Positions 1-64,000 of a stretch of 64,000 nt of DNA are shown here, piece by piece (the stretch's first letter is position 1; each line of letters starts with the position of its first letter). The notes beneath the pieces are model-generated. The model saw nothing but the letters and a program-made list of their open reading frames with translations. It did no database searches and was not told the DNA's origin. The DNA is from Naegleria gruberi (taxonomy: Eukaryota). A program made the position numbers and the translations under genes. The stretch lies in the NCBI GenBank assembly GCA_000004985.1, contig GG738847.1. One strand, written 5' to 3'.

Positions 1-2894
1 AAAAGTCAATACTTGGATGATGCTTCAACTCTTCAGTGAGCTCATAATAGTGAGTGCTAAACATACACAAACATCCAACAACATCAGCCATGTACTGAGC
101 AACAGAATTAGCAATTGCATAACCATCGTGTGTAGATGTACCTCTTCCCAATTCATCTAGAATGACAAGAGAACGAGAAGTTGCATTTCTAACAATATTG
201 GAAGTTTCCAATAATTCAACCATAAATGTTGATTCACCAGCAAGAATTCTGTCATTAGCACCAATTCTTGTGAATATTCTATCAATAAGAGTCAATTCAC
301 AAGCCTCTGCTGGAACAAAGCAACCAATTTGTGCCATAATAACAGCAATACATGATGATCTGAGAATTGTTGATTTACCACCCATATTTGGTCCAGTAAC
401 CAGCAAAGTGGTTGCATCGTCAGCCCCCATAAAAATGTCATTAGGAATAAATCCACTGGTTGTTCTAACAGTTGGGTGTCTCATCTTAGTTACTTTTAGT
501 ACTGGTTTGTTTTTAAAAGGAAGAATCACTGGTCTACAATAGCCCTCTTGACTACTTGTTGTATAAAGAGAGAGGAGACAATCTAATTCTGAAATTGATC
601 TCATAATAGTCTTCCAATATTGGTCGTATGTTGAAAATTCATTGAGGATTTCTCTGTACTGGTTCTCTCTAATATCATCCATCTTTGTTTGACGGAGTTT
701 GCTTTCTGTTAATTTCTTATCAAGGAATGGATGGCTCCATTTACGAGTTTTTTGGTTCTTCTTTTCACTCTTGAATCCATCCGGCATATTATCAAGTTCA
801 ACCTTTACCTCAGTTTCAATCGTCCATTGTTTAACTATTTTAGTATTTCCTTTATCAATTTTCATTTTGGCAGAGGGAACCTCTTCTTTAACTTTTGCAA
901 TAAAATCCTGAACTTCCTTGTCAATCTCTGCAACCTCTTCTAAATACTTTTCATATTCTGGACCCAAAGAACCATCTATACGTTCTACAATACCCTCCGA
1001 CAAGGCCTTTTGCTGATCAATTTGGTTTTCAAAAGTACTTAAAACATTATCAATTTCATCAAGGTTATCAATATTAATTACTCTTTTCAAAATGCTAGAA
1101 TTCACAGATTCTGCATACTTTTGCAATCCTTGAACAATGATTACTCCAGCTCTCAAACTCTCTAATGCGTGTAAATATGGTTTTACCCTTCTTTTGCTTG
1201 TACTGGTATCAAAAGCAATTTCTTTTTGTACCTTTCTGGATTCTCTATACAAACAATGAAGACATCTTTCCAGATCCTTTATATTTGAGAGTTGATCTCT
1301 AATAGATTGAGGTTCTTCTATTATAGACATTATATCCTCAATAGCATCATATCTATCATTAATTTCTTCAGAATTCTTCAAAGGTCTTGTTAACCAATTT
1401 TCCAACATTCTTCTTCCCATAGCTGTGACTGTATTGTCAACCAAACTCAATAAAGTACCTTCCTTTGTTCCAGTATTAGAATTTACTTTGACATCCAAAT
1501 TAGTGAGAGTTTGTCCATCTAGAATCAAATGACCTGTATCCATTTTCCCGTCATATAATGAAAATTTGATCGTTTTAGATAAAAGTACATCTTCTTTTCT
1601 CAACTAGTTTGAAATATTCTCAATAAATATTGAAAAGTGGTGTTACTTACGTATTTCAAGTAAAATAAGGCCGCACCAAAACTAGACATAACAAGGTCAT
1701 TATCCAAGAATTGTTTAACAATTGCATCCTCTGAAATATGAGGCAGATCTTCAAGAAAATATTTTGTTACATCTGCTGTTGGAAAACCAGTGAATTCTTT
1801 TTGAGCAAGCTCATTACAAGTCTTCTTTTCTCTAATCACAACCCTTTTGTTATCAATATTCTTTTTAGTTTGAACAGAAGTTTGCCCCTTTTCAATAATT
1901 ATTTCGCTTGGGTTGATGGTGTGAATGAGTGTATTGAATTGATTTCTGTGAGTGTCATCTTCAATGAATCCAATATAGAAAGCATCCATAGAAATGTCCA
2001 AGAATGTAATACCGTATCTAGCATGCATAATGTCCTCCTTTACACATAGCAAGTACTGATTACCGTTGTCTGATATGAAATCCAAATCGGTAATAGTAGC
2101 AATAGTGGTAATGTCACAAATTTCTCTTCCAACACAACTGGATGCAGTCTTCTTTTCCTTTTTTCTTTCGTTTCTTTCTTCAACTGTTTCTCTTTAAATT
2201 TGATTATTTTCATTGAGATCATAAAATATACTTACGTTTGTTCAACACGCAAGCAATCATATCCTAAACTGATAAACTTTTTAGCATAATTCAGAAAGGA
2301 ACTTTCTGGTACACCAGCCATTCTCATGTTAATTCTTTCAGTTATCTTTAAATCAAACTCCTTCTTTGCTATATCAGCATCTTCCTCATACAATTCATAG
2401 AATTTTCCCTTTTTGAAAAACACAAGTTTGTCCATATGGTTTTTCTTTGTTGCCCAGTACTGTTGTTCCATTGGTGTTAAATTACTCATATCACCAGTTG
2501 AAATGTACAAAGTTGACTTGTCAAAATCAGGATCACTTTCTGGCCTTCTCTTATCATCTAATCTATTGGTAAGAAATGGAAATCTATCCTTTTCTTTTTC
2601 TTTCTTCTTTTTAATACCAGTAAATTTTGAAGTTCTAATAGTATTTTCCTCCAATTCTTCCTCATCATCGGATTCTTTCTTTTTCTTCTTTTTTGCTGTA
2701 GTCTTTTTTGCTGGTTGCTTTTTCTTTGGTTTTTCCTCTTCTTCATCAATGAATTCAAAGTCTTCATCCTCATCGGATGATTCATCCTTTTTTCTCTTCT
2801 TGCTACCACCAACCGACGATGGTACAGAAGGAGATGCGCTCGATGAAGCACCCTTCTTCTTTGTGAATGAATAAATGTTTTGTTGGACAGGCAT
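1..2894 (-). CDS. MSH6: DNA mismatch repair protein MSH6 homologue. 5' part only; the gene continues past the left edge. Exons on the minus strand: 2894..2236, 2191..1651, 1603..<1. Introns about 44 and 47 nt.
   Basis: N-terminal PIP-box-like QQNIYSF, then an acidic/lysine-rich linker. Mismatch-binding domain (TPMEQQYW...FYELYEEDA). VEQT|ETVE junction restored by splicing. Connector domain (YGITFLDISMDAFYIGFIEDD). Walker A TGPNMGGKST in the minus-strand translation around 370-400. Donors GTAAGT, acceptors AAAG/CTAG. The spliced reading aligns with human MSH6. Confidence 0.85.
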
Positions 2895-2963
2895 TTCGAT
2901 ATATTTTTTTTTGATGATTTATTTGATTCCACCAAATGCTAGCACTCAAATGGGCGGGAGATT

Positions 2964-5865
2964 TTATGCACTGGTTTGGTTAACTTGTTGCTTGCTTTGC
3001 TTTGCCTTTTTCTTGAGACAACGAGTATTGGATCGTTCTGCCATCAATGAAATGAGAGAGTACATGTGTTTGACCTTTTGTTTGTTGAATTTTTCTTTTT
3101 GAGCTTCAATGTAGGCCATCTTGTCCTCAATCTTATTTTCCTCTTTGGATATCACTTCTGTACCATCCTTTGCGAGGGATTTCAAGTGAGAGATTACTTC
3201 ATCAATAGATTGAGAAAATGAAATCTTTTCCTTTCCAGAATATTTTTGATGAAGTGGTGAATCTTCCAAATTAATGTACTTTTTCCTCTTCTTATTCTTC
3301 ACTTGAATGGACAAGTCGAATGTAATGCATGACGGATCAACAATGATGGTCAATGGTTTCTTCTCATCAAGTGTGAGATTGAGTGATTTAAAGTAGGTTG
3401 GGAATAAATTGCTATAGTGATCCTTAACTAGATTCAATTTTTCAACATAGGTGACATTCTCAGTGTTGGCATTAATGATATTTACATCGAGAACCAACTC
3501 TCTATCGAATGTTTCATTCAATTGTTTTACCCAACAATTCACATTATCAAATTGTGATTCGTTTTCTGTAGAGTTGTCCTTTACAATAACCATACACAAT
3601 CTTGGTCTCTTTTGAGGTACTGTATAGCCAACTGGTGGTACGTTTTGAGGCTTTTGAGATTTCAATCCAGAAAATGATATGCCACGAGCGTGAGTCATCT
3701 TCCACTTTAAAAATTCCTTCAAAAGTGAAAGATCCTGTACAAAGTCATCCATACTAATACCATGAGATTCCAAAAATTCAGTCATTAATGCCATATTGAA
3801 TAACTTGTAGTTTACAGCAGGAATGAAAATTCCAACTGGCTCATTCATATCCTTGAGAGCCTTACGGATAAATGAAGCTTCTCTTTCAGTCCTGTCGAAA
3901 AACTCGATTCTTGCATCATTTTCATATACAGAACTTGTTGCATCATAACCAGCAAAGTATTTCGTATCGACAGTAACATTTGGTGAAATGGTATGGAATG
4001 CTCTGTCTAACATTTTCAATGTTTCAGTCTCGATAAAGTGATGCAACACTCTTGGAAGATAGGCATCGACTGATCTGGAAATTGTGACATAGGCCGGTAA
4101 TTTTTCTTGAGCGACAATGATTCTTTCAAGCTTGTTCATTTCATCTACGATTTGATCCTTTGTCAAGTACTTGGAAGGTAAACCACTTGGACAAACTCCA
4201 AACATTTGATTGACATTACAATACTTTTCAACTGTTGGGAATCTATAATTCATTTGTAATAAAGATAAATGGAAATAATTAATACTCTCCAAAAACAAGA
4301 CAATAAACTTGGATAACTCATAGAGATGTTGTAAAGCAAACAGCTTTCCCTCGCACCACATATTTAACAATTCCTTTGTAAATACTGACTCTTCATCGAA
4401 TCTTATTGACTGAACAGGTTGTTTTGTGAACATGGCATTCTCATCAAACAAGACTCCTTTGAAAAACATTTCATGCAAGAAGTCTGACATTCTCTTTCTG
4501 TTAAACTTTTTGATTTCCTCTGTATTGTTCATATGCTTGGTTTCTGGCAATACATTCTTACCATAGCACAAAATCTTATCTTCCTCTACCATTTCTGCAA
4601 ATACTTTGAACAGGGGAGCGTATTGTTTTCTTGGAACCATGTTAAAAAGCATTTCATCATCTGTTGAAAAGTAGTCCAAATCAATGTCAAGCAAATAAGA
4701 TGTAGAGTTGAAAAATTGAGCATTCTTGTTGATTTCTCCAGTTGTTCTATTGAATAGAGATTTCATTCTAAATACATCCCATTGAATTGGAATAGTTTCC
4801 TTCTCTGGTTGATTGAATTCTTCATAGGGAGAGCATACACCTGCTTTAGCAATTTGTGAAATATTGCCCAATCTCTTTGTTACAGTTTTTTTGCCATTTC
4901 TATTGATTTTTCTTGTCCATTTGTACCCATCTGATTTTCTATAACACAAGTAGGTAGTTTCTGGGTCAACTGTGTCTGTTTGTCTAATATCTTCAATAGA
5001 TTGAGATCCCTTCAAAACTGCTGACTTTCTCACTCCCAACTCGGCATTGAAACGACCTTGTCCAAAATTGTATCCACCTCCCTCAAAGTCACTTTGAAGC
5101 CATACTACCTTTGGACTAACCAATCCCAAATATTGTCCAACAGGAATGAAATCTCCAATAGATGTAGCTTCCAATAATTCACTCAAATGTGTATCATTAA
5201 AGACATGTCTAAATTTGGTTTGATTCTTTGAATTAACATATTGCACTCTTTCATAATTTGAAGGATTTTCAATAATATCTCTAAATTTCTTAAAATTGAA
5301 ATAATGTTGTGGAATTTGAGCATCAGAGTGAGAATCAATATGAAGCAAAGGTAATCCTTGATATTGTAAATTATATTCATTAGAATTTGCCTTCTCACCA
5401 TCATATTTAATTCTAGGAATGAGACCCAACTTGTGAGCTCTCACCCAGAAAAACAATGCATAATTGTGCTCATCAAAAATTCCAATATGAACCCTATTCT
5501 TCTTTTTCTTGTCCTTTCCAATAGTTTCGTTCAATTTCTTTGCATAATTCAAATAGGCAGGAGTTGAAGTGATTGGAGCTGGAAATTTACTCTTTGCTCC
5601 GAGAGTTGGATAGAAACGAGCACTTCCATGTCCAAGAGAAAAGAGTTTACTCAGTATTGTACTACTACCACCATCAGGAGAAAACAGATTCGCCTTGTAG
5701 AGAAGTGCAATGGAAAGGATTAGGATAAGGAAGGAAACAATGAGAAGGGTCTTGCTGAGTGAAGATGATTCTGTGAAATGTTAATGGGAATGTGTGATTT
5801 ATTTTGTACGAACCTGATGGTTTAGTGGCAGGTGAAGAAGATTCCTGCTTTTTCTTTTTTGCCAT
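2964..5865 (-). CDS. Type II membrane protein with a large luminal domain of unknown function (possibly UPF0489/C5orf22-like). Exons 5865..5814 and 5770..2964, joined by an intron of about 43 nt.
   Basis: ATG at 5865 encodes MAKKKKQESSSPATKPS. Donor GTTCGT and acceptor CACAG join in frame to a hydrophobic anchor (SLSKTLLIVSFLILILSIALLY) that has no in-frame ATG of its own. Exon lengths sum to a multiple of 3. Luminal motifs VHIGIFDEHNYALFFW and LHIDSHSD. Confidence 0.55.
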
Positions 5866-6021: not shown

Positions 6022-8015
6022 CTATATTTCTCCAAAAATATTTCCATCATCTGTGTCGGTTACTGGAGTTCTGTATTTTTCTTTTTGCTTGAAAAACTCA
6101 ACTGATGTTCTACACTCGATTGGGTACAAACTCTTTACAAATGTAATGCATTCCTCTACTGTCCATCTTTCAACATTGTTTTTTTTTGTCATGTTCAATA
6201 TTAATTCTTTCATAAACATATTGAACTGCTTTCTATGGGTTTCTTCCATATCGTTTTTAATATCTGTTCTTAAAGACTCATTGATTATTTCACTAATAGA
6301 ACGACCTAATGAAAACAAATCACTTTTAGGAGAAACACTGCCATGTTTTCTCTTTTCTGGTGAATCATAAGAAGGAGATCCAGAAGTTGAAGTGATTACA
6401 TTCTGGTCAAAATCCTTACAGACATCTCCATCACAGCTAGCATATTCAATTGACAAGCCATAATCAATTATAAAATAATGGTTGTCATACTTTACAATAT
6501 TTTGTGGTTTTAAATCGTTGTGAATTATTCGACTATTTTTGAGAAAATACAGTTGCACCAATAAGTCTATAGTCAAACTAATAATCTCTTCCGGATCTGA
6601 TATAGTCTCAACCTTTTCACCCTCCAACAAGATAATTTCTCCTGAACTTGCACGAGTGATGAACAATGTTAGGAACTTAAGATTACCTATTAATGAATCA
6701 CTACTATTCGGCTCAACTTGTTTACAAAAAGCCTTCCAACTGTTATTAGATTTTGGATTAATGATATCACATTTCCACAAAGATTTTGTTGTTTGGCAAA
6801 GTTTCTCTGGTGCTTTTTCACGTAATTTGATAATCAGTCCTCCAACAACTAAGGATGTTTGAGGCTTCTTCTTTTCTGTTTGGGGCTCTTTTATGGAAGG
6901 TTTTGAGTGCTTTAAATACGTTTCTACTATATCTGAGTCAGGAATAGAAAAGGAGTTCAAAATTATATGTATCAATTGTGCACGTTCTTTTACCTCAGTA
7001 TGTTGGAAATTTCCAAGTGTATACATTTTGTAAGATATAGATAGATCATCCTTAATATTTGCATGCATACAATACAAATTTGTTTGTATGTTGTCAGTAG
7101 TCATGCCAAGAATAAATAATTTGTCGTGTATGTTTGATTCCAGATCCTTTTTAACAAGATGTCTAATGTTCTTTGAAAGTGCCAATCTCATCACAAATAC
7201 CACTCTTAAAAAATCTGGATGATTAAAATGGCTAAACGAATGCTCATGTTTGTCTTCTCTAATAATTTTGGTAATGTACCTATCATTGTACTTTTGGGCC
7301 AAAATGGCATCAACTTGAAGTTCTTTCATTGAATCCTTAATTTTTTGTGACAACATTTTCTTATTTAACATGTTTGGTATCTGTTTGTTGCTATTGACAA
7401 ATATCTTGTTTTTGGAAAGGAGAGCCAATTCAAACAGTGAACTGAAGTGTGTTGTGGTGAGCTGCAATTCTGTAGCACAACCTAAAATGTTCAACTTTGG
7501 TGGAATAAGAGATCTAAGGATTGAAGAATAGCAATCATCACGGAGATTATAATGTTCGATAACAGCTTGAAGATTTTGAATTGAAGGATCTTGAGCATAT
7601 TTCATCAAACAACTTGTATCATCCTTGCAATTAAAAATAGGGCAAGTTTCTTTCGAATATTCAATACTCAAAGTCAACAATAACCTTCTCAAGGAAGTCA
7701 TATCAGTGCACCCTTCGATATCTGGTATTGCCACCAATTGTTCTTTCAACTTTTCATCTATTTCGTCGTTGGTTGTGACAAATGGTAATTCTTTCTTTAA
7801 ATATTGCTCTATTTGTTCCAAAAATTCAAAGCCTTGATTGATGGTATCTTGAAGCTTCTTTTTCTTGGCCTTTGGTTGTTGTTTAGATGGTGATGTTCGA
7901 CTTCTTGTTTTGCTTCTTGCAGCTTTGGAGTAAGGAACAGACAATCCAACATCATCGCCCTCTTCACATTCTTCTCCCGAAGAAGAAGAGGCTTCTTGTG
8001 TAAAATAACCAGCCT
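6022..8015 (-). CDS. Divergent protein kinase with a long N-terminal region. A possible 7-nt start exon (8056..8050, ATGGAAG) may be joined by a 34-nt intron. The ORF caller's M at 7944 is a TTG.
   Basis: Catalytic loop IIHNDLKPQNIV (non-RD), DYG in place of DFG, and a C-lobe. The open frame extends upstream to 8015 with no ATG. The ATGGAAG|GTATGT...AACAAG|AG model gives a total length divisible by 3, but the intron is unusually short. Confidence 0.6.
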
Positions 8016-8410
8016 CTTGTTAAGTAAGCAACAAACATGGTTAACATACCTTCCATTTTTTCTATCTAATCTCACAATAAGCTTAATGAGGCAAAAAGCT
8101 CTATGGTATTAATATGGATGAGAACTATTCCCTGACCCTGGAATAAAAGATACACCTAATTATTGAATTCTTGTACAAATTGAAAGAACATAATTTAGCA
8201 CAAAACATTAAAACGTTGTTAATTGCATTAGACATGAAGCCATCCACGTTTGATGAAAAGTGTGAAAAAAGAGAAGTGCACATCACATATTAGACATTTG
8301 ACATTACTTTAGTATTTTCTAAAACTCTATTGATATATTGTTCGATTTTCAAATTCTGTGTTAAAATTGTATTAAAACGTATTTCAACGTGATTTTTTGG
8401 TAATTAAGGT

Positions 8411-10329: not shown

Positions 10330-11477
10330 ATGGTCAATCAAAAGAAGGTTGAGTACAACGAACGTGGACAAAGAATTGAAAAAAGCCTTAAATATTTCGT
10401 AATTGAGGAAAGAAGAAAACGGGAAAAGGAAGAGGACGATCCACTAGAAGGCATTATGGAAGAGAGTTTGTTCATTAATAGTCAATCGGGAATGGAATTA
10501 CTTTCTCAATATTGTCTTCCAACACCAAAGAGGTTTGTAAATTGTCAGAGGAAATATAGTTTTGAAAATTTAATAGCCTAAATAATCAGCTTATTGTAGA
10601 GAATTATGATCATCATCTTATTGATTTGAATTCAATGTTGCTTGTCAAGTATGAAGACATGAATGATTTACAATCTAGGCTTGATGATATTACTACCTCA
10701 ATGAAAACATTATCCTTTGAGAAGGATGTTCCTGGAGAGGAAGAATTTCCAACTCAATTTGATGGAGTTAATTTTGAAATTAGTACTCAATTGAAAAAGT
10801 ATAAATCAAACTTTGAAAATAAGAGACTAAGCAAGTTTCTATCATGCGAAAAGAATCAAAAGACAATATTTGATTTCATCAAACCATCCCATGTAAGTTG
10901 TATTGAATCAGTAGGACATAACATTAGCCTTTCGAATGAGAAGAAAAGAAAACCCGATGAACCTAAACTCTCCGAAGAGCAATCCAACTTCAAAAAGCAA
11001 AAACTCATTTCAGAATATACATGTCATCAGAGTGGAGAGGAAATGTTTGAAATCTTAGAGAGGAGCATTGAGAGAAAGAAGAAACAGCATCAAGGACATT
11101 CTGAGAAACAAGTTGAAGAACAACATTTAGTGGTTGTACTCGAAGAATCACCAGATGTTTCATCCTATTCGTCTAAAAATCAGCCTTCCTCCTTGAAACC
11201 TCAAGAACCTTCTGCCTCAATTCAATCCAACAGTAAAGCAAAGCAATTAGAATCAAAGCCAAGTGAGGAAACTCCCATCGAAACCAAGCCAAAAACCTAC
11301 ATGGAAAGAATTAGAGATCATGCCAAACTCTTCCATTCCAAACACATTCCCAAAAGCACCCTAACCATCAAAAAGAAGCCAGAGAAACAAAAAACTAGAG
11401 ACATTCTCAAAGAGGAAGATGATTTCTCGATTCCACAGGTTGACTCTTCTGTGATAAACAGTCTCTTTTCCTATTAA
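10330..11477 (+). CDS. Acidic, serine-rich protein of unknown function. Exons 10330..10536 and 10590..11477, joined by an intron of about 53 nt (GTAAAT...CAG).
   Basis: ORFs 10330..10581 and 10626..11477 are in different frames. The second has no in-frame ATG before an upstream stop. The splice joins them in frame, and the total length is divisible by 3. Confidence 0.5.
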
Positions 11478-11480: not shown

Positions 11481-11897
11481 ATGTCTCAAACAACAGCTGT
11501 TGTCGATAGTAATCTTTCACACTTTAAGACAATCAAGGAATTTATTTTCAATTCCTTTGTGATACATCTCGGAACAGAGAGATGTCCAGTTCTTTCCGAT
11601 ATTTTAATGTTGTGCATGAGCTCGGCTCCACCATCATCAAGAGAAGAATTATGTCGGCTACACAAAGATAGATTGGATCATTGTTTGGATCATGAAATGA
11701 GGATAGAGTAAGTAGTAGATTTGTGTGATTTGTTTTGGATGATTATTTTCAATAGATTTGAAAGACAAATTCACTCAAATTGTTCAACTCAATTCAGAAC
11801 ATTAACTTCGGGGAAGTTGGAAAAGAACTTGGCCTATAATGAATTGATCAATTGTCTCAGGGAGCAAATCACCAAACCTACCTCCATCATTATTTAA
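11481..11897 (+). CDS. Small Cys/His-rich protein of about 122 aa. Exons 11481..11707 and 11756..11897, joined by a 48-nt intron (GTAAGT...ATAG).
   Basis: The ORF ends at a GTAAGT donor. The downstream exon stays open for 47 codons in the frame that the splice requires. Confidence 0.45.
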
Positions 11898-42443: not shown

Positions 42444-45400
42444 ATGGCGAACGAAGACTATGTGTTAAACTTTTCGATTCCTTTAAAACCTGAGGACTTG
42501 GAAATAGAGTCAGAGACCTTTTTCTATGTTTCTGATGATATGGATGTGAATTCATTCTCTACGACAGAAATTCACAGTTTAATTGATGGTACGTTTTATA
42601 TTTTAATCGGAATGTGTGATGATCATTGTTTTATTAGATATTGAAAACAAAATTTCGGATAAACCCTACTCTATCACAGATGGAAGCGTCTTTACAGCAA
42701 TCTACAGTTGCATTAAACATTTTTCTGCTCTTGATGATACTTGTAAACAACGTCTATTGGACAGTTTAGTCACAAATCTAAGCAGTCTGTTAACTAGCAT
42801 AACGAATCTGTTCATCAGATCATCAGCCGAAAGATCATATGGAGCAGATGATTTTGACAAAGTTGTTGCTATTCACAAGAATGCTTTGAAAATGTTCGTC
42901 TTCTGTGTTTTCTGGGGAATTTATAAATTCGAAAAGGAGGAAATGGAATCCAATAGTGAAGCAGAAAAGAAGAAGAAGAAATCCAAATCTAAAAAGAGAA
43001 GGAAAAGCGTTTTGGAAATGGATGATTGGAAAGAAAGAATACTGAAACTCTTGATTTCTGTCCTAGGACATAAATTAGACAAGTTGTGGAATAAGGAAGA
43101 CAAAATAGAGGACTCTTTTGTTTTGTTATTCTTCAGAGTTGCCTTCTCCTTTATGGAAAATCCAGAAAACCTAAAATCAGAAACTCTCAAACCAAAGATT
43201 ATTGAGCTTATCATTGCTGCCCTTCATGCACCATCAGGAAATATGCAAACAGTTATTTCTTCGATACTATCCATGATAATGTCGAACGCCAGTTGCTTAT
43301 CATGTATTATTGAAATGATAGAACACATTTGTGCTCCTTCATCTGATTCTGAGAATAGTGTTGGAAAGCTTTTTGTTAGCGAGTTATTCAGAGAGATAAG
43401 CAGATTAGAACAATCTGTCATGAAGTCAGATTCTGCAGGTACAAAAAACCTTGCTCAATTCATATCAGACTTGGGCGAAAGAGTTCCACTATCGATTCTT
43501 GTAAATATGAGCGTAGTGATATCCCATTTGGATGCAGAATGCTATCATATCAGAAATGCTGTTCTGCAAGCAATCACACACGTAATTTGTAAAATACTCA
43601 AGTCAACTTCAGAAGAAAATAACAGTAGAAATACCACAACAGAAAACATTACCAAGAAAACTCGTGATTCTCTGATTGATATTCTTGAAGAGAGAATGTA
43701 CGACGTAAATGCATACACACGTAGTAAGGTTCTTGCTTGTTGGGGAATGTTGTGCGAGGAAAAGGCTCTGCCTGTGAGAAAAATACCTCAAGTTTTGGAA
43801 ATGGTGTCTGGAAGATTATATGATAAGAGTGCTTTCGTCAGAAAGGCTGCAGTGCATTTCTTATCAACCATTCTGTCTAACAATCCTTATGGAAGTGTTC
43901 TGAAATTATCTATATTGGAAGAGAAATTGGCAGCTGCTAAAAAAACATATGATGATATTCCACAGTACTCTGAACCTGAGCTTGAACTTCTTCCAGAAGC
44001 AGAAAAAACTGATCTCAAGACAAAACAAGACAGGGCAAAAAGATATTGCATTTTGTTCAGAGAAGCAATTTCTTTTGTTAACAATTTGCATTCAACCTTT
44101 GAATCTGCCTATCAACTCTTAAATTCTAAAACCAGCTCTGATGTTTGTGAATGTATCAGCTTTATAGAGAAGTCTTTCATGTTTAAACTTGATATCTCCA
44201 CTCCTGCCCTTAAGAAAATATTTAAGCTTATCTGGTCTCCTGAACAGACTGTCAAAGATGCTGTATTGGAATCAATTCAAAATATCTTTATGAACCCTGA
44301 AAATTTGAAATCGACTGATGAGTGTATTGAAGTTGCACAACGATTTGCAGAGTTAGCTTTAGAGTGCAACCAATCTGAGCTTTCCTCTCTGGAAACTATT
44401 GTGAACTTGATTGTTTACAATAATAAGTTTTCAAAAAATCTGTTCTTGGCATTGTTCGAATTGACCGGGAAAAAACAACCAGAAAATCATGTAGTTGGAG
44501 CCCTTATTATAATTAATATGGTTGCTACAGCTAGACCAGAACCAATAAGAAAAAAGATTAAACTGTTAGTTACCGAGGTTATGGAAGAACGAGCTAAAGC
44601 TAGCTTCCTCATTGCAGTATATTCATGCCAAATTCTGCAAAGACTTGCTAAGGACGACTCTAGCGAAGCTTTTCAAGATGAAAAAAAGAAGAAGAGTAGC
44701 TCAAACGAGAATGATGACTGTCTGAAATATGTTGGTGGTAATCCAAGATACAGACTACCAGATAATCACAGTGTTTTCAAACTTTTGCTTGACCTCATCA
44801 TTGGAGATCCTAATTCACCACCGGAGCTATCCAAACTTTCTGAATGGATGACCATTACTGAATCTGCTTTGAATGCTATATTTTGCCTTGCAGAAGATCC
44901 AATACAGTTGACAACCCACATTATTAAGGAGGTTTCATTGAAAACTAATTTATCAGACCCAAACCAATCACGATCTGAGACGCTCACTGTTTCTCCTATT
45001 GAACTTACAAAGCTATTTTTTATTTTAGGACATTCTGCTCTAAAAGAATTAGTGCTGATTGAAGACCAATTCAAACAAGCCAAGAAATATAAACATAGAA
45101 TGGCCCTAGAGAAGGAACAAGCAGCTGCAGAAAAGAAGGAAAAACCAAAGAAAGGATCTAAAAAGAAGAGGGATAGACAAGAACTTGAGGAGGAGAATGA
45201 TAATGATACAACCGTTCTGGAAAGAGAATTAGGCTTAGATCCATCAAGTCTTGACGATCATGAACTTGAAGAAACATTTGAAAAGAAGGAACGAAATATC
45301 ATTACTGAGTCATCTTTATATGGGTCCTACTTGCCTTTGATTTTATCTATTTGCCATGATAGTGCCAATTTGTACAGATATTCTCCATTGAGAAAAACAG

Positions 45401-46776
45401 CCATTCTTGCCCTTTGTAAATATATGTGTATCAGTCAAACAGTATGCGAGGATAACATCAGATTACTTTTTACAATCCTCATAAGAAAACCAGAAATGAG
45501 ATCTAAACAATCCATAGAAGGTTATACCACCATTAGAAATAACATTATTGTAACAATAGGCGATCTTGCGTGTAGATACCCTAATGTTGTTGAAAGATAT
45601 ATTCATCACTTGTATAGTTGTCTCAGAGATTCGGATAGTAGAATCAGAAAGAACACCTTGTTGGTTCTTTCTCACTTGGTTCTTAACGATATGGTAAAAG
45701 TCAAGTCAAATATTTTCGAAATTGTCAGATGTATTGAAGACACTTCTGAAGAAATTTCGCAACTATCAAAATCTTTCTTTACAGAGCTAGCTAAGAAGGC
45801 ATCCGGTAGCAACAATCCAATTTATAACTTGTTACCAACCATTTTAAGTAATTTATCAAGAAGGGATGCTGGTGTAGGCCCTGTTGCATTCCAAAACATT
45901 ATGAAATTCCTCATTTCATTTGTAACAAAGGTGCAACATAATGAAAAGTTAGTTCGCAAACTTTGCCAAAGATTTGACCTTGTACGTTCTTCTTCAACAA
46001 CCAAAGCCACAGATGAAGTTTTTGAGAAGAAGGAAGAGGATCACCACACAGATGAAACCAATATGGATGTGCAGCCAAATGAAGATCTAACAAAGAGTGA
46101 CTTTGATCCAGAAATTATTCAACAGTGGAGAAATCTTGCTTACTGTTTGACCCAACTCACAATGAACGACAAGTGTATTCAAATATTGATTTCAGAAGAT
46201 TGTGTTAAATCCTATAAGAAGTCTTTGATAGATTTTGAGGTTTATGAATATCTTACTTCAATAACTGCCAAATTTAAGAAAACTGCCACCTCAAAAATTG
46301 GAAAGAAAGCCAGTGATGGAAATATGAATCAAGAACTTAAGGATCAGATTGAGGAATGGGAAAAGCAAACAAGACTTACTCACCTCAAACTATGTGAAGA
46401 AAATGATATTGAATCGAAATTACTCACCAAAGAAGAGGAGGAAGAGGAAGGAAAGAAAAAACCAAGAAAAGCAAACAGTAAGGTAAAATCCAAACAAAAG
46501 GGCAGAAAGGCAATCGAAGAAGAAGAGGAGGAAGACATGTCAGAAGAAGAGGATGATGATGGAATTGACGAGCTATTGGACGATGATGATGAAGAGCTTG
46601 ATTTACTGGACGAAGAGGATGATGAGCCAGCTAGTAAATCTAAATCCAAACAATCCTCTCAAAGCTCCTCCAAAGTGGTTGAAGATGAAGAAATGCCTGA
46701 AGAAGAGCAAGAAGAAGAAGAAGAGGAGCAAGTCATTCAAACAAGAACTAGATCAAGAAGAATTAAAAATAAATAG
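42444..46776 (+). CDS. NCAPD2: Condensin complex subunit 1 (Cnd1/Ycs4/NCAPD2 homologue). Exons 42444..42588 and 42638..46776, joined by a 49-nt intron (GTACGT...TTAG).
   Basis: Collinear with human NCAPD2: FISDLGERVPLSILVNMSVVISHLDAECYHIRNAVLQAI and LLFTILIRKPEMRSKQSIEGYTTIRNNIIVTIGDLACRYPNVVERYIHHLYSCLRDSDSRIRKNTLLVLSHLVLNDMVKVK...IYNLLPTILSNLS. Acidic C-terminus. The splice is phase-verified against both ORFs, and the total is 1428 codons. Confidence 0.9.
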
Positions 46777-51817: not shown

Positions 51818-51937
51818 GTGCTACTCTCATGTAACTGTATAATAAACTCTAACTAGTACACTAACCAATGTATTTACAAAGACTGAATAATAAGACGAAT
51901 AAGAAGCTTGCAGTTTTGATGACCAAAGCATAAAAAA

Positions 51938-54900
51938 ATGACGTCATTGCAATCTTCATCATTGAGTGATGTTCTATTAGACGATGACACACAGAACAAC
52001 TCCTCGGAAAGATCGTTGGAAGATATTAAACTTTATAATTTTGAGGAAATTGGAGAACATTCTGTACAAATTAAAAAACGATTATATGTTACCGATTTTT
52101 TGAAAAAGACATCTGGATCGGAACAAGATGAAGGAAATTATTTTTCTAAATTATCTAAAATGTTGTCAATGATTTACAATACATACACAAACAAGGATCA
52201 ATCAGCAACAGAAAAAAGTCAAGACAATAATGTTAGACAATCTATCATTCAGAAATTTCATCAAAATTGGGCTATTGAATACACTTCTAATGGGCTATAT
52301 ACCCTAAAGGAGGCAACACTGAGATTGCTTAATGAAGATTTAGTTTCATTAGCAAGTGTGAAAGCTATGGAGTGGACTGACAGAAGAAAAATATTATCCT
52401 GTTCAGACGATTTAGTAGTAGTCACATGTTCAGACGATGGAAAGATTCGAGTCTACACACATGACCTTAAATTACTAATTTCAATTGATTTGAACTCTCT
52501 ATTGAATTTTGACAAGCATTCTATGAGTGGACCATCAATTTCAAATGTAAAAATTTCAAAGCCATCACTTAATTCGGAAAGGTAAGATTTTATTGAGAAT
52601 TTTTGAGTATTTAATCAAGGATAGATATGACATTTTGTTCCTATATGAGCAATCAGTTTTTGTTATTCCTCTAGTTAAGAATTCATCAAACTTCCAACTT
52701 TACAAGATGAAGAGCTATTCTGATCAAGTTTTATCTTTCGATATTTATAATGATAGCGAAAATGGAAGAATTATTTCTCTAGTTTTGGAACATGGTGAGC
52801 AGGAATCAATTTTCTTGAGTTATCCTGAATTGGAAGATTCTACTCTTGTTAAGGTTGATCAAAAACCAAAACGCACCAAATTATCAACATCCTTCTTGAG
52901 TAATAGTGATGATGTAATTGTAAATCCAAAACTTGTATTTTCTAAAGATGGATCACGTTGCGCCTTTTTATCAACAGCTAAAAAGCTCTACATTTACCGA
53001 GCTCCATTTCCATTTAAGAATGACTCCAGAATCCAACATATGAGTGAAATAGTAGATGTAGTAGAGTTTAATTGGTGGTCAACCTCATCAGTTATAATTT
53101 GTACAACCTCTAATCAATTATCAGTGTTGGATGTAACATCAAAATCAAACATTCTCGGAGATGGTGATGTAACAGAGGATGTGGAAGGAATGCCAATCAT
53201 TTCTAGTTCTCATGATGGAAAATTCTTCTTATTGGAATATGAACCTAATGTAAATCAACTCAAATTGGACCAACAATATCTCCTGCTTCAAGAGCAACAG
53301 AAGCAAATGCAAACATTGGAAAATGCTTCAGAAACTTCTTTATTTAGCGCCTTTGCCACCTTGCTGACGTTCCTTTTCCCAAAGGCCATTAAAGAACCAG
53401 AAGAGTTAAAGGAAGAAAACATGATTCCATCCACTTTATCACTTGCCTACAGACTTTATAGATTCTGTAAGAAGCAACCTGAATTAGAATTCAAGGAAAA
53501 GTTAGAACAAGGAGATTTGGAAGAGGCTTTATCATTAGCCAAATCATACTCCTTGGATTTAAATCAAGTTTACAAGAAAATGTGGAGAAGACAAGTCATT
53601 TCACTCTTTTCCATTGAAATACTCAACCAAGTCTCGGATAAGAATTGGATTATTGAGGAATGTATCCAGAGAGTAGCCACCAATGAAGAAAGCATGAGAG
53701 CTCTTCTCGAGTGTGGTCTCACCATAACAGAACAAATGTTAAAGGAATTAGATGACGAAGATATTGTACAAAAGCGTTTGAAGATCCTTTACTATTTAGA
53801 CAGATTGGATATGTACATGCAACTTGCAGATCAACAATATAAGGCTGACCAGTACAATTCTTTCAGAAATTGTGATCTATTCGAGTATGCCAAGGAAAAA
53901 GCCTCTATGAAAGATTTAGATTCCTTGAAGACAGTTTTATCATATGGGTTGCGAGTGGAAAAATTGAATCATCAAAGCAGATCTATTTCTCCACACCTTA
54001 TTCTAGACATTTTATCTTTTATACCAGAATCTCTGGATCCAAGACTATACGAGGATGCATTACCAGGAGTAGAATCTGGTAAATTGAAACGCTGGGATCA
54101 AATTAGTTTGAGCAGATTGTGTAATGATTTTTGTGAAGAAAAATTGCCAAAACTCGATACCATCTACCCAACATCACAGGAAATAACTGAGTGGTATATT
54201 GGTAGGGCTGAAACTATTGATGTTACCTCAGGTATGGTGAGCTATGCTGAGACGATACTGGCTATTGGTATTAACAAGAATGTTAATGGATTGGAAGAAA
54301 AACTGAATCAACTGAAATTCTTGTCCCAAATGATTTATAATAGAGGCAATCTGTTTAATTTGAATAAGCAACTTGTCTCCATCAAAGATTTTGAAGAAAA
54401 CATGTCCAACTATGACAAATTCAAATTGCTCATTAATAAGAATAGTGTAGATATTGTCTCCCAGCTTGTCAACAAGGGAATCAATTTCGTTGAACATTGT
54501 GAAGAGGAAAAGACTGGAAAAGACTCACTTATTTATCGATTTGTTGCTCACGAACTTGCACCATACAGCTTTGAGCAATGTTGCAAGATATTAACTGCTC
54601 AACAAAGAACAAGCTTATTGGGAGACAATGAGACCATTACTCTCTTAGCTATTGAATGTATTTACTCGGTCAAGAACTGGAAAGAAAATACTGAAAATAT
54701 TATTAGAGTATTGAATGCTCTCCCTACATCGAATATTCACGAAGAATTGGAAGACCAAGTCAATCAACTCAAGAGAAATACTCTAGCAGTTACCATTCTC
54801 TCTAAACAGTAAGTTTTCAATTTGTTCACCAACTTTAACATGTAAAAATAGTAACCTTTCTATTCAACTTTCATTGTCGATGGATTTGGAAGCTGAGGGA

Positions 54901-57900
54901 AATAATATTATGCAAGAACTTTTGCAAACAGGTATCAAGAGTGCAAAATCTGAGAGATCATACCAAACACTCTATAATGATTTGAATAATCTTCACAAGT
55001 CCTGCTTTGCTCACTTGTCTCTCAATGATATTTATCACCAATTTTTGAAAAACTGCTGCCTCTCTGGTCATGCCAATTTGGCCTATGATTACATTGTTGC
55101 CAAGTGTATTCTTCCTTTTGATGAAGCTGATGATGTCATATTTGAGGCTACTTCTGAGCTTTTCAACAGTTCTGTGCAACCAACTGATTCTTCCATAATG
55201 ATTGCCGATAAGTGTATCTCACTACACCAAAGCTTACAAAATGAGAAGCACATTTCCCTCTCACAAGAACATAAGTGGAAGAGAGAAAAAGATGTATTGG
55301 CAGCTTTTAGAATGCTTGACAAAATTTATACCAACTATCCTCCAGCATTATTCTTGAAAAAGCATAGCCCTGTTGAAGTAATCAAATACCTAATTGAAAA
55401 TAATACAACAGGAACTGAGGAAGAAAGATTGAAAGAATTTTATGAAATTTCCAAGTTATTGGGTGGAACTGAGCATGATAAGAAGGAAATTAAAAAGTTG
55501 GCTATTGAATCATCTTTGGAGCAGGCTGGCTCAGGAAATATTTCAGTAATCAAGACCCTTATGGAGCAAAATCATACTGGAGTTTACAAAATCTGCTCCA
55601 AGATGAGTATCGACAGCATGTGTGAAATTTCACATGAAGACCGCTTGAAATTTGTAAGTTTTATTCATATATTTATTTAATTTACAATCGAATATAGGCC
55701 TCATTTGCTATCCAAAATTGTGATCCTTCAGAACTTTCTGAAATGATCTCTAACTATGAACTAATTGAATCACAAGAGCTTTTCTCCTCTCGCTCATCCA
55801 TTAAACCATTGACAGAGTGTGTACTTCTTGCCCATCAAGAATTTGAGAAACTGACCAAGACTACCCCATTCAATGCAAACTTTGTAGGTTCATCTCCAAT
55901 TTATTCTAGCAGTTCGGAAGTATCATTCCTCTCCAAGTTTGGCATTTCTTCCAGCTCGTTAGAAATTGAACACCTTCTCAAATTGAAGGCTTCACATATT
56001 AGAAATTGTATAGCTACAGGTACTGATATTTCTCTAGAGTCACTCCTTGAATTTGCAAGCTTGACCCTACTGAATGGTCATATCATTTCATTTGTTTCTA
56101 TACTAATTCAAGTACCTATTGAACAAATTGACCAGGTCAAAAGGTTATTTGACTCTATTCTTTCTTCTCAACCTCGTGAAACCAAGTCAAGCATTGTTGA
56201 AAGAATGCTCAGGGTGTTTAACTTTTACTTTGGACTAAGACTTTTGTTATTGGAAAACCCAGATGGATTGGCTGACTATTATGACGAGCTCAGCATTGAA
56301 GAAACTATTGAAAAGGCTTTAGAATCTGATTTGAAAACCGAATTCAGCTCAATTGTAGATATTTTAACTCTTTATAACGGATTGTTGTACATATGTAGTC
56401 ATTTCAATGAGCTTTCTACTTTATCCAACAACAAGTTGAGCTGTTTGAAATTTATAACCGAGGAGGATTATAGAATCAAGTCTCTTACCTTACTCTCTCA
56501 AACAAGCAACAAGGATCACCTACAAACTGTATTACAAGTGGCCGATAAGTTAAAATTAGGAAAGGATGAATTTTACCTTTGCTACCTGGAAGCAGTCTTG
56601 AAAAATAAGGTCATTTCTCAAGAAGACAAAACTTTCATATTTGAGTTTGTTTCAAACATTAACCGTGAGAAGGTAACCAGCTTATTATTACAATTTATGG
56701 AACCTTCACTTGCCAAAGAGTATGACCTCACAAAGCTTTCCTTCTTGATGGACGTTCTTTTATCGTTAGGAGATGACCAATTCAGAGATCAGAAACTTGT
56801 TCTAGACACCCTCTGTAAAGAATGCAAGGGAATTACCAATAAGGAGTATCACGGAATTCTCAACTCTACTTCTCCAGATTCCCTATTTGACCTTTTACGT
56901 CCATACATTAATCACCAAAATGTAAATACCATATTGGATAGTGTTGAGAAAGTAGTTAAGAATAACGTAGAAAGACCAAGATTTTACCTTTTCATCACTG
57001 AATCATTGTTGACAAGTAACAGCATTGACAATAAGGAAAAACCAACACTGGCAGAAGAGTACATTTGCAAGTTGACCGAGAGTGATATTAGATCTATAGT
57101 AGAAAAGCTTTCATTTAACAATAGTTACAAACTTCCTCATGCTATTCGTATTTCAATCATGAAGAACTCCCTCAATGTTATAACTAATTCTGAGCTCGAA
57201 CATTTTGTTAGAGGCAATATTTTCAGAATGTTGGCAGCCAAGAGAGTATTCCAAAGAGAGGAATTGGATAATTTACTCGGATTATTGGACAAGTATTTTA
57301 AAAACCAAGTTGGATTGACTAGAGTACTTGCCAATATTGCCCTCTGTACTCGAAGCAAAGATATGGTAGAATCAGTTCTTACCGATCTTAAAGAAGAATA
57401 CTCTGATATCTTCTCTGAAAGTAAGACTCCTGGTGAACAACCTTCGTTCCTTTCTACTGACTCCACTAAATCCTATCTGGAAATAGTTGACCAAGTCATT
57501 CAATGCCTAGTGGATCATGCTGAAGAGCTCAGCAATGAAACTGAGACCAATGATGAGGAAGACTTTACACAAGAAGAGCTCGAGAATTTAACATATGAAG
57601 AGGATGGCATATGTTGGCCTCCAAACAATGCTAAGCTTGGATGCACTTACTTGCATATTATTTTGGGCTCTATTAAGGATCTCTCAGACTTGTTCAATAC
57701 CATCCTCTCACATATTGAGCATACCACTAAGAAGGAAGATGACTTCCCTGTAAGAACTAGAATTGCTCTCATTAGAATTATTAGAAAATATAAGAAACCA
57801 CAAACTCCTTCACCTGAAATCAAACAAGAACAAATTGTAATTCAAAAAGAAGATTCTCCAATCATTGGTGAAGTACAAGAACCTAAAGTAGAAACACCTT

Positions 57901-58802: not shown

Positions 58803-59812
58803 TTATTCTGAAGGTGATTCCAGAATAATGCTCATGTAATCAGCCATTTCCTTATTGTTAGATTTTTTGTACATTTGAATAATCTTATCCTTGGAATGTT
58901 TAGCAAGTTCCTTGTTTAACTTTTCATTGGAAGAAAATCCCAATGATTTGCAAGTCAAATATAATCCAAAAAGTGCTCTCATGTTTGTTTCACTGTTAAT
59001 ATTAAGTGATTGACTGTAATATTTTCTGGCATTTCTGTAATCTCCAGTGGTGTAAAGAATATCTGCATATTTCAAATGGAAAATATAATTTGCTGGATTA
59101 CTCAAAATCATTTCCTCAATACAGAAAAGAGCATTCTTATATTCAGCATTAGCAAGATAAATATCTGCCAATTCTTCATAAGCTTCCAAATCATTTTGAT
59201 ATATTTTCAAATATTCATTGAGTGCTGTAATACTTTCCTCGATTAAATTTTGCGATCTGAAAATTGCAACCTTTCTCTTGTAAGAGAGAGCATCAGTTGG
59301 ATGATCTTTAAGAATGTCATCATAGATTTGTAATGCTGTTTCGAATTGGTTTTGTGCCTCCATCAAAAGTCCTTCCAATCTTTTTACTCTGAGAGACTCT
59401 CCGAATTGCCCTTGAAGACTAACTAAACATTCCTATATTGTTGTTCCAATCACAATAATTATTTATAATAAATATTATTATTAACAATGTATTATAATAA
59501 ATTAAATAATAATAATAAATTATTACAAGATGATATTTTGTTAAAACATACTTGGGCCACAGTAATATTATTCAAATCAGCAGCTGCTCTCAATAAATGT
59601 TCATAATAATCCCAAACATTGTTTCCAAGTTTTGAGAAGGCTTCACTCTTATGATTATAGAACAAATGTTTTCCGCACTTGAGCACTAAATCAGGTCTCC
59701 TCAGTGAAGATCTCTCACAAACTTCCTTTATAATATCAATACATAGAGATGCTGATGGTTTTCCAACTTGTTTTAATTCCTTCTCGAGTTCGAGCAAGCT
59801 TGGTGTTGTCAT
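58803..59812 (-). CDS. EMC2: ER membrane protein complex subunit 2 (EMC2/TTC35) TPR protein. Exons 59812..59552 and 59432..58803, joined by an intron of about 119 nt (GTATGT...ATAG).
   Basis: 296 codons after splicing. SLRVKRLEGLLMEAQNQFETALQIYDDILKDHPTDALSYKRKVAIFRSQ...NALFCIEEMILSNPANY...NMRALFGLYLT is collinear with human EMC2 ([48 protein letters not shown]...AAFCLEELMMTNPHNH...NMRALFGLYMS). Confidence 0.85.
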
Positions 59813-60827: not shown

Positions 60828-63800
60828 ATGTCCTTGTTTAATGGGTTATCTTCATCGACTAGTATAAATAGCCCATCATCAACTAACAATACACCCCGAG
60901 AAACAAATGATCACAAAGGGGATTTGAGGAAGAGATCTCTCCGAAAAGTGCATGTTGACTTGCCCTCACCTTTGGAAATTAAGAAATTCAATCGAAGTAT
61001 TAGAAATTTAGAAGATTACAAACCTTTCAAAATCGATGAAGGGAATGGCTATTTAACAACCTCTTATTGGTTTGAATTAATAAGTGCATATACGTTGGAC
61101 ATGGAAATATTTCAGACTATTCTAGCTCTTTCGTCTGCTCTCTTTTTTATCATTTCAACATATATTCAATTGGATATTGATGGCAAACTAACAGCTATTC
61201 TAGTAGTGGATTTGATATTTTCCCTTTTATTTATTTTCTTCTTTGTTGTAAACTTCTTCTTGGCTAAGGACAAGTAGGTTTGCTAGTTATTGAAATATTT
61301 CTAACCCTGGAAAATTAGGAAAATGTATTTTTTTCATCCTTTATCAGTATTGGATTATATTACGGTGGTACCTTCACTAACAATTAACACACTTTCAATT
61401 ATAGGAGGTTGGAGTGGGTTGGAGGACATTTATTCATTTGTCGGTTTATTGAGAGTTTTCAGATTGCTAAGGTTAATTCCTCTCATTAAAAAAATTTCAT
61501 CTAAGGGAGATATCAATTCAATTTATGCAAAAGTTGCAGAGCTAGGTCTTACAATTGCTTGTCTTCTTGTTATATTTACCGGTGTTTTTCAGTGGCTAGA
61601 AAATTATTTTGGGACAAATACCAATATTTATTTTCATGATGCATTGTACTTTATAGGTATTACCCTTGTTACAATTGGGTATGGTGATATTGTAAGTGGA
61701 ATGTTATTTGAAAATTGACTTATTCAATGATTTAGACTCCAACACATTGGACTTCTAGGTTTGCTGTTCTATCCTTCTTCATTATTGGTGTTACAATTAT
61801 TCCAATTCAGGTCTCAGGAATTTATGCCATTGTCACAGCAGAGAAAACAATTTTCAAAGTTAAAAACCCTGTGTTAAAAAAACATGCTATTATAACAGGA
61901 CATTGTAGATTAGATGAAGTGTTGGATTTTATCAAAGAATGCTTTCAGTATAAATCAAACGAGGTTGAGAAGATTATTCGTAAGTAATTCTCAACTCCAA
62001 AAATGTTATTTACCTCTAATATGAAATAATACTATAGTATTATTCAATGACCGACCATTTTGTGAATCCTTGACTGATTCTTTGAGAAAGTTTGATTTTA
62101 ACAGTAAAATTCAAGTGCTATTTGGAGAAATTATGGACTTTGAGATTATGTCCTTACTAAAAATAGCAGAGGCTCACAGGTAAGTATTTTAGTGATATGA
62201 GGATAGAATCCATTTTCCTCCTTAAAGTATTTTTTTATTAAATAGTCCAAAGATAGGAAACCCAAAACAGCAGGACACTAATATTATTATGACAACTATT
62301 GCATTGAGAAACTTTAACCCAAAGATTAGCGTTTATGCTCAAATCAATTTAATAGAATCAAAAAATTTGATTCAAAAAGCAGGTGCTAGAGTAATCGTCT
62401 GTTACGAATCTATTTGTTCGAAGGTAATGTCTGCTTGCTCTACAGCTCCAGTATTTTCTTGCTTTCTGTATAATCTACTAAGTGGAGCTGATGTGGATAT
62501 TGAACATGACAAGTTGAAAGACTATGTCTTTTCTGAAAATTTATCGGAACAAGAGAACGACATTAATTGGATTATTGAGTATTCTGATGGAATGAACAAT
62601 GAATTATATCGAGCCAAGTTCAGCCCTGTATTTTATGGAAGTCTATTTATTGATGTTGCTGAATTGTTGAGAAGATCTGATATTACTATCTTTGCGCTGG
62701 AAAGTAATCATACAATTCATATTAACCCATCAGGTCATAGAATCAAGGAGGGTGATAGATGCTACTGTATTGCGCCTTCTATTGAATATGCTGAATTGGT
62801 CGAAAAATTCAAAATATCTGCTGCTGAGCTCTCAAAGTTTAAATCTGGAAAGGAGGAAGAGGAGATTATTGAATACAATCAAACAGAAGAAAATAACGAA
62901 GAAGCCGAGGTATTTGAACAAGAATTTACAGAATATCTAAAACCTGCTAGCTCTTCAAACAGTAGCTCTAACCAACAACAGAAAAAGGTTGATAATGAGA
63001 AATGGGTTTTAAGAAGTCCTAGACTAAGGGTGACACCCAGATTACGTATCAATCAGTTGCTGAGGATGAGAACTGAAACAAATGTTGATATCTCTCTACT
63101 AAGAGATGAGGATGATGATCACAACACTCACTTGGAAATTTTGCTAAAGTTAATTTCTCCAGAATCATACTTTCAAGAAAAACGAAAGTACTTGCAATCT
63201 ATCAGAAATACATTTACAGGAAGTGAGTTGGCCGAAAAGGAGAAGGAATTCTACAGCAAAATTACACAAATTTATAATATGGTAGACCGACCATTCTCCA
63301 AAGATGAGATTTTCATCCAACACCACAAAGATAAGAATATTAGTGATCACCTAATTATTCTTGGAGATTTCAGTCAACCAGCTATTGTGTGCGCATTGTC
63401 GAGATCTCTTCAAAGGCACTCGAGAGATACCCAAATTGTATTAATGACCGATAAGACTGATTATTTGGATCTAATTTACCAAAGATTAAGATACTTTAAT
63501 AAGGTTTATATTATTTTAGGAAATTATTTGAAGACAACACACTTGAGAAGGGCAGGGTTTGGTGTATGCAAGAGAATTTTATTTTTCGCAACTGAGGATA
63601 AGGATAATGAAATTATCAATGAATACACTATTGATTCGGAGGCAATTAAGCTTTCTCTAGGAATTTCAGTCATGGATAAGAGTAAGGGTTATGTTATTGG
63701 TAAGTTTATCATTCACTTTCATTGTTCATCTAAAGAATTCATAGAATTGGTGAATAGAGCTAATATGAAGTTCTTTCAACATCAGGGAATTCCTACTCAT

Positions 63801-64000
63801 TTAAAAGTTAAGAAAATGAGAGAGGATGGTCTTTTAGATTATGATATTGACGAATTTGATCAATTTTGCTTATTTTCTGATTATTACATCTCTGGAAGAG
63901 TATTTCCATCCTCTTCCTTCCTAAGCAAACTGTTGTCTCAATCATTTCACAATAGAAAGATAGTTGACCTAATTGAGCAATTGTGTTCAGATGAATTTAC
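60828..64000 (+). CDS. Slo/BK-type K+ channel with S4 voltage sensor, TIGYGD pore and RCK domains. 3' end beyond the window. Exons 60828..61273, 61319..61691, 61736..61979, 62038..62179, 62246..~63699, 63745..>64000. Introns 45, 44, 58, 66 and probably 45 nt.
   Basis: S4 LLRVFRLLRLIPLIKK. Selectivity filter TLVTIGYGDI. Then KHAIITGHCRLDEVLDFIKECFQ, ...NIIMTTIALRNFNPKISVYAQINLIESKNLIQKAGARVIVCYESICSK, collinear with BK RCK1 ([24 protein letters not shown]...[22 protein letters not shown]). Exon phases are consistent through exon 5. Confidence 0.8.

Follow-up and report, generated by a model that had tools for sequence, protein, structure and literature searches.

The interruptions of open reading frames (ORFs) along a 64,000-nucleotide (nt) stretch of Naegleria gruberi DNA, called the window here over its full length, are almost certainly ordinary U2-type (GT-AG) spliceosomal introns in nuclear DNA of strain NEG-M. 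Twenty-two GT-AG introns are supported, of which 19 measure 43-58 nt (median 45 nt) and three are longer (82, 119 and 202 nt). The short ones form a tight length cluster, with 16 of the 19 within 43-49 nt (43 nt in three introns, 44 nt in six, 45 nt in two, 47 nt in one, 48 nt in three, 49 nt in one, 55 nt in one and 58 nt in two). Among the 19, 17 are well supported and two are tentative (7995-8049 and 11708-11755). An earlier note, made by a model that saw the letters and a list of ORFs, had proposed that GT...AG segments 43-58 nt long link neighbouring ORFs without breaking the frame and that these are real introns. Both proposals held up, the first for 19 segments between same-strand ORFs and the second through gapless homologs, identity with a GenBank protein and intron positions shared with Naegleria lovaniensis. 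Homology and annotation show that the mature coding sequence lacks the segments, and from the same evidence together with conservation we infer that they are removed from the RNA.

The evidence is densest where spliced products can be compared with other proteins. Homolog or profile alignments run without a gap across 15 junctions, and exact identity to a deposited protein covers three. The latter lie on the plus strand in the NBAS-like gene, where removal of introns of 43 nt (52582-52624, GTAAGA..GATAG, phase 2), 43 nt (54809-54851, GTAAGT..AATAG, phase 2) and 44 nt (55654-55697, GTAAGT..TATAG, phase 0) gives a protein of 2232 amino acids (aa) that equals EFC49575.1/XP_002682319.1 ('neuroblastoma-amplified protein-like protein') letter for letter. 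In the MSH6 gene on the minus strand, the alignment to human MSH6 (2o8b_B) passes the 47-nt intron (1604-1650, GTAAGT..CTAG, phase 0) without a gap across residue 400/401, and the junction of the 44-nt intron (2192-2235, GTAAGT..AAAG, phase 2) falls inside the conserved RVEQTET motif, gapless as well; the spliced protein matches human MSH6 with E 1e-129. Two of the longer introns, both on the minus strand, behave in the same way. The 202-nt intron of the HGSNAT gene (15361-15562, GTAAGT..TGTAG, phase 2) joins WFGFTPT to DCVFPFFLF without a gap against human HGSNAT (8vkj_A), and the 119-nt intron of the EMC2 gene (59433-59551, GTATGT..TATAG, phase 0) is gapless against human EMC2 (8eoi_B) across residue 87/88. 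In the condensin Cnd1/NCAPD2 gene on the plus strand, a 49-nt intron (42589-42637, GTACGT..ATTAG, phase 1) gives an in-frame join, and the alignment to Ycs4 (6qj3_A) begins eight residues ahead of the junction and crosses it without a gap. The earlier note had invoked homology to MSH6, HGSNAT, NCAPD2, NBAS and EMC2 in favour of splicing, and this is borne out by the gapless junctions and the NBAS identity.

The BK channel gene (60828-63998, plus strand) holds four introns at which the spliced protein is gapless against 9di8_A: 61274-61318 (45 nt, GTAGGT..ATTAG, phase 2), 61692-61735 (44 nt, GTAAGT..TTTAG, phase 0), which directly follows the GYGDI selectivity filter, 61980-62037 (58 nt, GTAAGT..TATAG, phase 1) and 62180-62227 (48 nt, GTAAGT..TAAAG, phase 2), the last also gapless against the N. 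lovaniensis protein. A fifth, probable intron of 45 nt (63700-63744, GTAAGT..CATAG, phase 1) is stop-free and in frame, and was absent from the earlier list. This segment corresponds exactly to a 15-aa gap in the N. lovaniensis BK ortholog, the only one in the region, and the GenBank model NAEGRDRAFT_62424 translates it. From these alignments, 63700-63744 is probably a genuine intron that the GenBank BK model reads through, and one to which ORF-based reasoning is blind.

In the Groucho/TLE-like gene (16037-17415, minus strand), removal of a 44-nt intron (17267-17310, GTTTGT..AATAG, phase 0) and a 48-nt intron (17111-17158, GTAAGT..AATAG, phase 0) gives a WD40 protein a Groucho/TLE N-terminal Q domain. 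Over the two upstream exons and the start of the third, with both junctions included, Pfam TLE_N matches in a single uninterrupted stretch (profile positions 13-109 of 118, E 1e-13, 52 bits). For the WD40 domain, the best natural single-domain PDB match is human TLE1 (1gxr_A), which aligns over the full propeller with E 6e-41. In N. lovaniensis the ortholog (587 aa) carries TLE_N and WD40 annotations, and its gene has introns at the same two positions.

Comparison with N. lovaniensis (GCA_003324165.2) was made by rebuilding the annotated exon structures at the loci of three orthologs (NBAS, BK and Groucho-like). Of the nine introns tested, seven occupy the alignment column of an annotated N. 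lovaniensis intron and have its phase; one more is displaced by two columns. By gene, the identical ones are NBAS introns 2 and 3 of three, the third case (intron 1) being two columns off in the same phase; three of four in BK (61274-61318, 61692-61735 and 61980-62037); and both in the Groucho-like gene. The protein alignments of the two species are unbroken at all compared junctions.

The sequence of the introns fits the same reading. All 22 begin with GT and end with AG. The 5' site counts are G 22, T 22, A 19/T 3, A 14/T 5/C 2/G 1, G 21/T 1 and T 20/A 2, with GTAAGT in 11 of the 22, which is an extended, GTRAGT-like donor complementary to U1 small nuclear RNA (snRNA). At the 3' site TAG occurs 18 times, AAG three times and CAG once. 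Intron GC content is 25.5%, compared with 32-35% throughout the window in 4-kb stretches. The GTAAGT/GTATGT/GTAAAT-type donors listed by the earlier note were correctly recognized, but they are not exclusive, as GTTTGT (twice), GTTCGT, GTACGT, GTAGGT, GTAATT and GTAAGA (twice) also occur. A frame-blind rule, which skips GAG and takes the first AG lying 38 nt or more past the donor, finds the in-frame acceptor in 18 of the 19 short introns, and the lone exception is settled by the GenBank model. Five short introns have lengths of 3n; four of these contain in-frame stops and the fifth (63700-63744) does not.

Seven of ten single-exon, ATG-initiated ORFs tested have exact GenBank/RefSeq N. gruberi matches on one 941,567-bp scaffold, including EFC49780.1, EFC49569.1, EFC49570.1, EFC49787.1 and EFC49571.1 (annotated 'predicted protein'); therefore, the window is N. 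gruberi NEG-M nuclear DNA. Its GC content agrees with this, the published N. gruberi value being 33% (PMC8296547). It is densely filled with eukaryotic genes, including those encoding MutS domains I, II, III and V, a kinesin motor, condensin Cnd1, a PRP4/WD40 protein, GST, an OTU protease, a PUF protein, EMC2 and BK-channel RCK domains. That the host has a spliceosome is indicated by the PRP4-type U4/U6 small nuclear ribonucleoprotein (snRNP) protein, encoded at 37653-39470 with a PRP4 domain and WD40 repeats. Its best PDB match is a generic WD40 repeat protein and the second-best is human U4/U6 snRNP Prp4 (E 3e-36). Taken with the continuous conserved coding sequence obtained on removal and the positions and phases shared with a related species, these features are those of U2-type introns.

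A simple mechanism would account for the pattern. Most introns would lie at the 'minimal intron' length of the organism, 43-49 nt, and the spliceosome would recognize them by intron definition, with U1 paired to a strong donor and splicing to whichever usable AG comes first, about 40-45 nt farther on. Because the introns are short and mostly stop-bearing or frame-shifting, a prokaryotic ORF caller sees chains of truncated ORFs. The earlier note was right that the ORF list splits genes and accepts TTG and GTG starts, as at 2964..5552 (TTG), 6022..7944 (TTG), 42616..46776 (GTG), 52593..54812 (TTG) and 54874..55680 (TTG). Its claim that donors lie within 0-3 codons of the ORF's stop applies to just 7 of the 19; elsewhere the distance to the read-through stop is 24-53 nt, except where that stop is located beyond the intron (two cases) or does not exist (63700-63744).

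The remaining introns were recognized largely from reading frame and coding score. In the kinesin-14 gene, an 82-nt intron (28900-28981, minus strand, GTAAGA..TTTAG, phase 0) gives an in-frame join, and the upstream exon encodes an SH3 domain in full, at residues 22-67 and ending at the junction (Pfam SH3_1, E 4e-11). A 58-nt intron in a 117-aa gene (48582-48639, plus strand, GTATGT..ATTAG, phase 0) also gives an in-frame join, over which a weak Complex1_LYR match extends (residues 32-74, E 0.009, below cut-off). The gene of a UPF0489/type II membrane protein has a 43-nt intron after a 52-nt first exon (5771-5813, minus strand, GTTCGT..CACAG, phase 1); its basis is coding score and frame, as the coding signal of the large ORF extends over 338 codons 5' of the first ATG in it (78.6 bits), and the ORF is joined in frame to the ATG at 5865. 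The gene that the earlier note had called a chromodomain gene has a 44-nt intron (13254-13297, plus strand, GTAATT..TTTAG, phase 1) with an in-frame join to a downstream ORF that is coding for 124 codons ahead of its first ATG; Pfam finds no domain in it and does not reproduce the chromodomain assignment. A further 44-nt intron (10533-10576, plus strand, GTTTGT..AATAG, phase 2) joins two coding-scored ORFs in frame. Of the two tentative introns, that of 55 nt in a protein kinase gene (7995-8049, minus strand, GTATGT..ACAAG) follows a 7-nt first exon, ATGGAAG, and joins it in frame to an ORF that is coding for 106 codons 5' of its first ATG. The other, of 48 nt (11708-11755, plus strand, GTAAGT..AATAG), is in frame with a stop 1 nt past the donor, in a small-ORF gene with weak coding scores and no homolog.

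All examples named by the earlier note could be located, i.e., the introns of MSH6 (44 and 47 nt), the type II membrane protein (43 nt), the so-called chromodomain gene (44 nt), the WD40 protein (44 and 48 nt), condensin (49 nt) and NBAS (43, 43 and 44 nt). Its K+ channel introns of 45, 44 and 58 nt are likewise in place, joined by one of 48 nt and another of 45 nt, as are its small-ORF introns of 48 and 58 nt, with a third of 44 or 53 nt at 10533/10537. Among longer introns, those of 82, 119 and 202 nt are supported.

Several observations count against the interpretation as spliceosomal introns, or against single members of the set. Thirteen of the 22 introns contain a YTRAY branch-point-like motif 6-35 nt from the 3' end, against a mean of 10.3 in shuffled interiors (P=0.18); since the introns are AT-rich, the motif carries little information. 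The 18 of 19 obtained with the frame-blind rule is not a clean probability, because the donors were picked partly for restoring the frame. For the tentative introns 7995-8049 and 11708-11755 the evidence consists of frame and coding score, and the junction at 10533-10576 is ambiguous with 10537-10589 (44 versus 53 nt). Nine of ten spliced full-length models have no exact deposited match, as the models differ somewhere, in starts or in other introns, and nine variants beginning at the first ATG in the ORF found no match in the protein collection either.

The alternative that survives best accepts the short class as real but holds that part of the at least 25 junctions proposed earlier are false or mis-delimited, comprising optional C-terminal extensions, in-frame 3n candidates and merges of neighbouring genes. 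We find this rather probable. The fixed-parameter gene finder, which served as a lead generator only, produced false positives of this kind, placing 3n 'introns' in GenBank single-exon ORFs (e.g., two in 25272-26810, which equals EFC49569.1) and merging neighbouring genes. No ORF requires the candidate at the C-terminus of the OTU gene (22316-22362 or 22316-22374), and no more than 19 short introns can be supported, including the tentative two; a total of about 24-26 is reached only by counting longer and unverified introns. The 17 well-supported short introns are untouched by this.

When any GT and any AG are allowed, nearly everything can be joined (691 and 569 joins per strand), and a class found in this way could be a search artefact in which almost any neighbouring ORFs are joined by chance; therefore, stricter approaches were used. 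A frame test was restricted to neighbouring ORFs with positive codon-usage scores on both sides of the junction and used consensus-type donors and non-GAG acceptors. Of the pairs 41-60 nt apart, 18 were in frame and 10 were not (p=8e-4 against 1/3), whereas at 61-130 nt 31 were in frame and 61 were not, which is exactly chance. Decoy donor motifs gave no significant in-frame excess in the same test. Non-consensus GT donors, with 39 in frame and 56 out, were near chance, and among hexamers that start with GT the GTAAGT type does not rank with the most enriched in the window, GTAAAT alone reaching 1.7-fold; these results would suit a chance origin, and window-wide hexamer enrichment of donor motifs was uninformative. 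The in-frame excess is, however, limited to consensus donors at 41-60 nt, and the junctions fall within conserved motifs, are gapless against homologs, include one exact GenBank model and occupy positions common to another species. Chance is refuted for at least 12 homology-supported introns, and as an explanation of the class it is very improbable.

A second strain provides independent sequence for part of the window. Three contigs of an environmental genomic metagenome assembly in ENA (ERZ929261, run ERR1078381, project PRJEB11402) are 98.2-98.9% identical to the window over 15.4 kb (16603-22103, 12088-12863 and 48118-57209); therefore, a very close Naegleria strain was present in the sampled environment. 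It shows the same interruptions at all six introns covered. Substitutions between the strains amount to 7/280 in introns (2.5%) versus 72/12,924 in coding exons (0.56%), a 4.5-fold difference (Fisher p=0.0014). Two of the substitutions lie in the Groucho/TLE-like intron at 17111-17158 and three in the intron at 48582-48639, which also tolerates a 1-nt indel. The bacterial-style gene calls of ERZ929261 break at introns. Frameshifting or stop-creating assembly errors, or pseudogenes, for which nothing specific speaks beyond the indel errors that draft eukaryotic assemblies can hold in general, are the least credible explanation of all, as this independent, 98-99% identical assembly is interrupted alike at six of six introns, the interruptions have defined GT and AG ends and a narrow length range, and the flanking exons retain strong coding scores and conserved domains.

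With the interruptions taken as spliceosomal introns, the GenBank gene models can be examined, and the deposited version was compared for three multi-exon genes. Two models lack N-terminal parts because short introns were not recognized. The BK model NAEGRDRAFT_62424 (706 aa) takes as its start a Met inside the last BK exon and is without the transmembrane voltage-sensor/pore part, which is encoded by four upstream exons behind four short introns. EFC49783.1 (354 aa) covers no exon of the Groucho-like gene except the last and is without the Q domain. The reverse error may also occur. EFC49784.1 (1039 aa; 17891-21179, minus strand) fuses a 286-aa ORF to a 764-aa PUF-repeat ORF through a 169-nt intron (20154-20322) whose weak GTAAAA donor starts at the stop of the first ORF; this model may be an over-merge of two genes, and models of this type may inflate the published mean intron length of 203 bp. 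Inside long ORFs, further stop-free in-frame GTAAGT/GTATGT..AG segments of 45-54 nt are seen at 10893-10940 (plus strand), about 28530-28580 (minus strand) and about 38285-38329 (minus strand), and these could be further in-frame introns or plain coding sequence. A PDB search with the PRP4 protein did not settle the 45-nt in-frame candidate at about 38285-38329.

Whether the 2010 N. gruberi catalogue under-calls introns of 43-58 nt systematically, including in-frame stop-free ones, such that published intron statistics and some 'missing domain' inferences are artefacts, is a serious possibility to which we give slightly less than even weight. The practical value of our analysis lies in re-annotation, i.e., in gene-model corrections within one 64-kb window. 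The 2010 proteome may under-represent exons behind such introns, and N. gruberi is a widely used free-living discoban reference. If the rate seen in the window holds genome-wide, domain surveys based on this proteome would contain false absences, and the quoted mean intron length would be misleading. The Groucho-like gene may be an example. A Naegleria sequence of the Groucho branch is described in one study as lacking TLE_N (PMC4943189), and this is probably the gene of EFC49783.1. If so, the absent Q domain was an annotation artefact of the 44- and 48-nt introns, and a complete Groucho architecture in a discoban would add weight to the view that Groucho arose before the opisthokonts.

Two further features of the window concern other genes. 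A tRNA-Asn (GTT) gene lies at 31009-31081 on the plus strand, in intergenic sequence between a glycosyltransferase gene and the gene at 31289-32245 (Rfam 67.9 bits, ARAGORN concordant). On the minus strand, a single-exon ORF of about 500 aa (39790-41298) has a Pfam match to T2SSF, the bacterial type II secretion protein F (E 2e-12); no exact deposited protein was found for its 502-aa or 493-aa ATG version. A mitochondrial system derived from the type II secretion system, with GspF, has been reported for N. gruberi and other protists (PMC8134430), and by its sequence match the ORF is consistent with this mitochondrial GspF. Self-splicing group I/II or other structured RNA introns were considered for the interruptions and rejected, as the segments are just 43-202 nt long and an Rfam scan of the window gives one tRNA only.

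The closest known system is the annotated intron set of N. gruberi NEG-M itself, with the same genome and loci. The genome was published in 2010 (Fritz-Laylin et al., Cell; cited in PMC3488318), and the three NBAS introns are already present in EFC49575.1. Because this genome is already published and annotated, the short-intron class is not a discovery; short GT-AG introns in Naegleria are known and stand in public records. The published figures of 33% GC and 1.7 exons per gene (PMC8296547) can be set beside the window, with which the exon number and the GT-AG termini agree, whereas the published mean intron of 203 bp (PMC8296547) differs from the window median of 45 nt, and at least two GenBank models in the window (NAEGRDRAFT_62424 and EFC49783.1) omit exons behind short introns. 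Analysts of Naegleria genomes have set the minimum intron at 30 bp 'based on an assessment of predicted genes' (PMC8296547).

The orthologous introns of N. lovaniensis share position and phase with those of the window and have GTAAGT, GTATGT, GTACGT or GTAGGT donors. They are longer (50-111 nt, compared with 43-58 nt) at seven of eight shared or near-shared positions, the N. lovaniensis/window pairs being 65/43, 50/43, 74/44, 56/45, 54/44, 54/58, 59/44 and 111/48 nt. N. lovaniensis lacks the BK intron at 62180-62227, and the window in turn lacks six introns that N. lovaniensis has in NBAS and BK. Published means make N. gruberi the species with the longest introns of the genus (203 bp versus 126-144 bp for N. 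fowleri), and the shorter introns of the window are at odds with this.

Minimal introns of about 40-60 nt are found in Caenorhabditis elegans, Schizosaccharomyces pombe and Pneumocystis, and of about 18-30 nt in Paramecium and nucleomorphs. The very short introns of Paramecium and the Bigelowiella nucleomorph have been discussed previously (PMC3488318). The introns of the window resemble the minimal introns of other compact genomes in their sharp lower length mode, AT-richness, strong 5' site and apparently weak branch signal. They differ in belonging to another lineage, Discoba, and at 43-49 nt they are well above the record-short classes. No sign of an unusual splicing mechanism is seen in the window.

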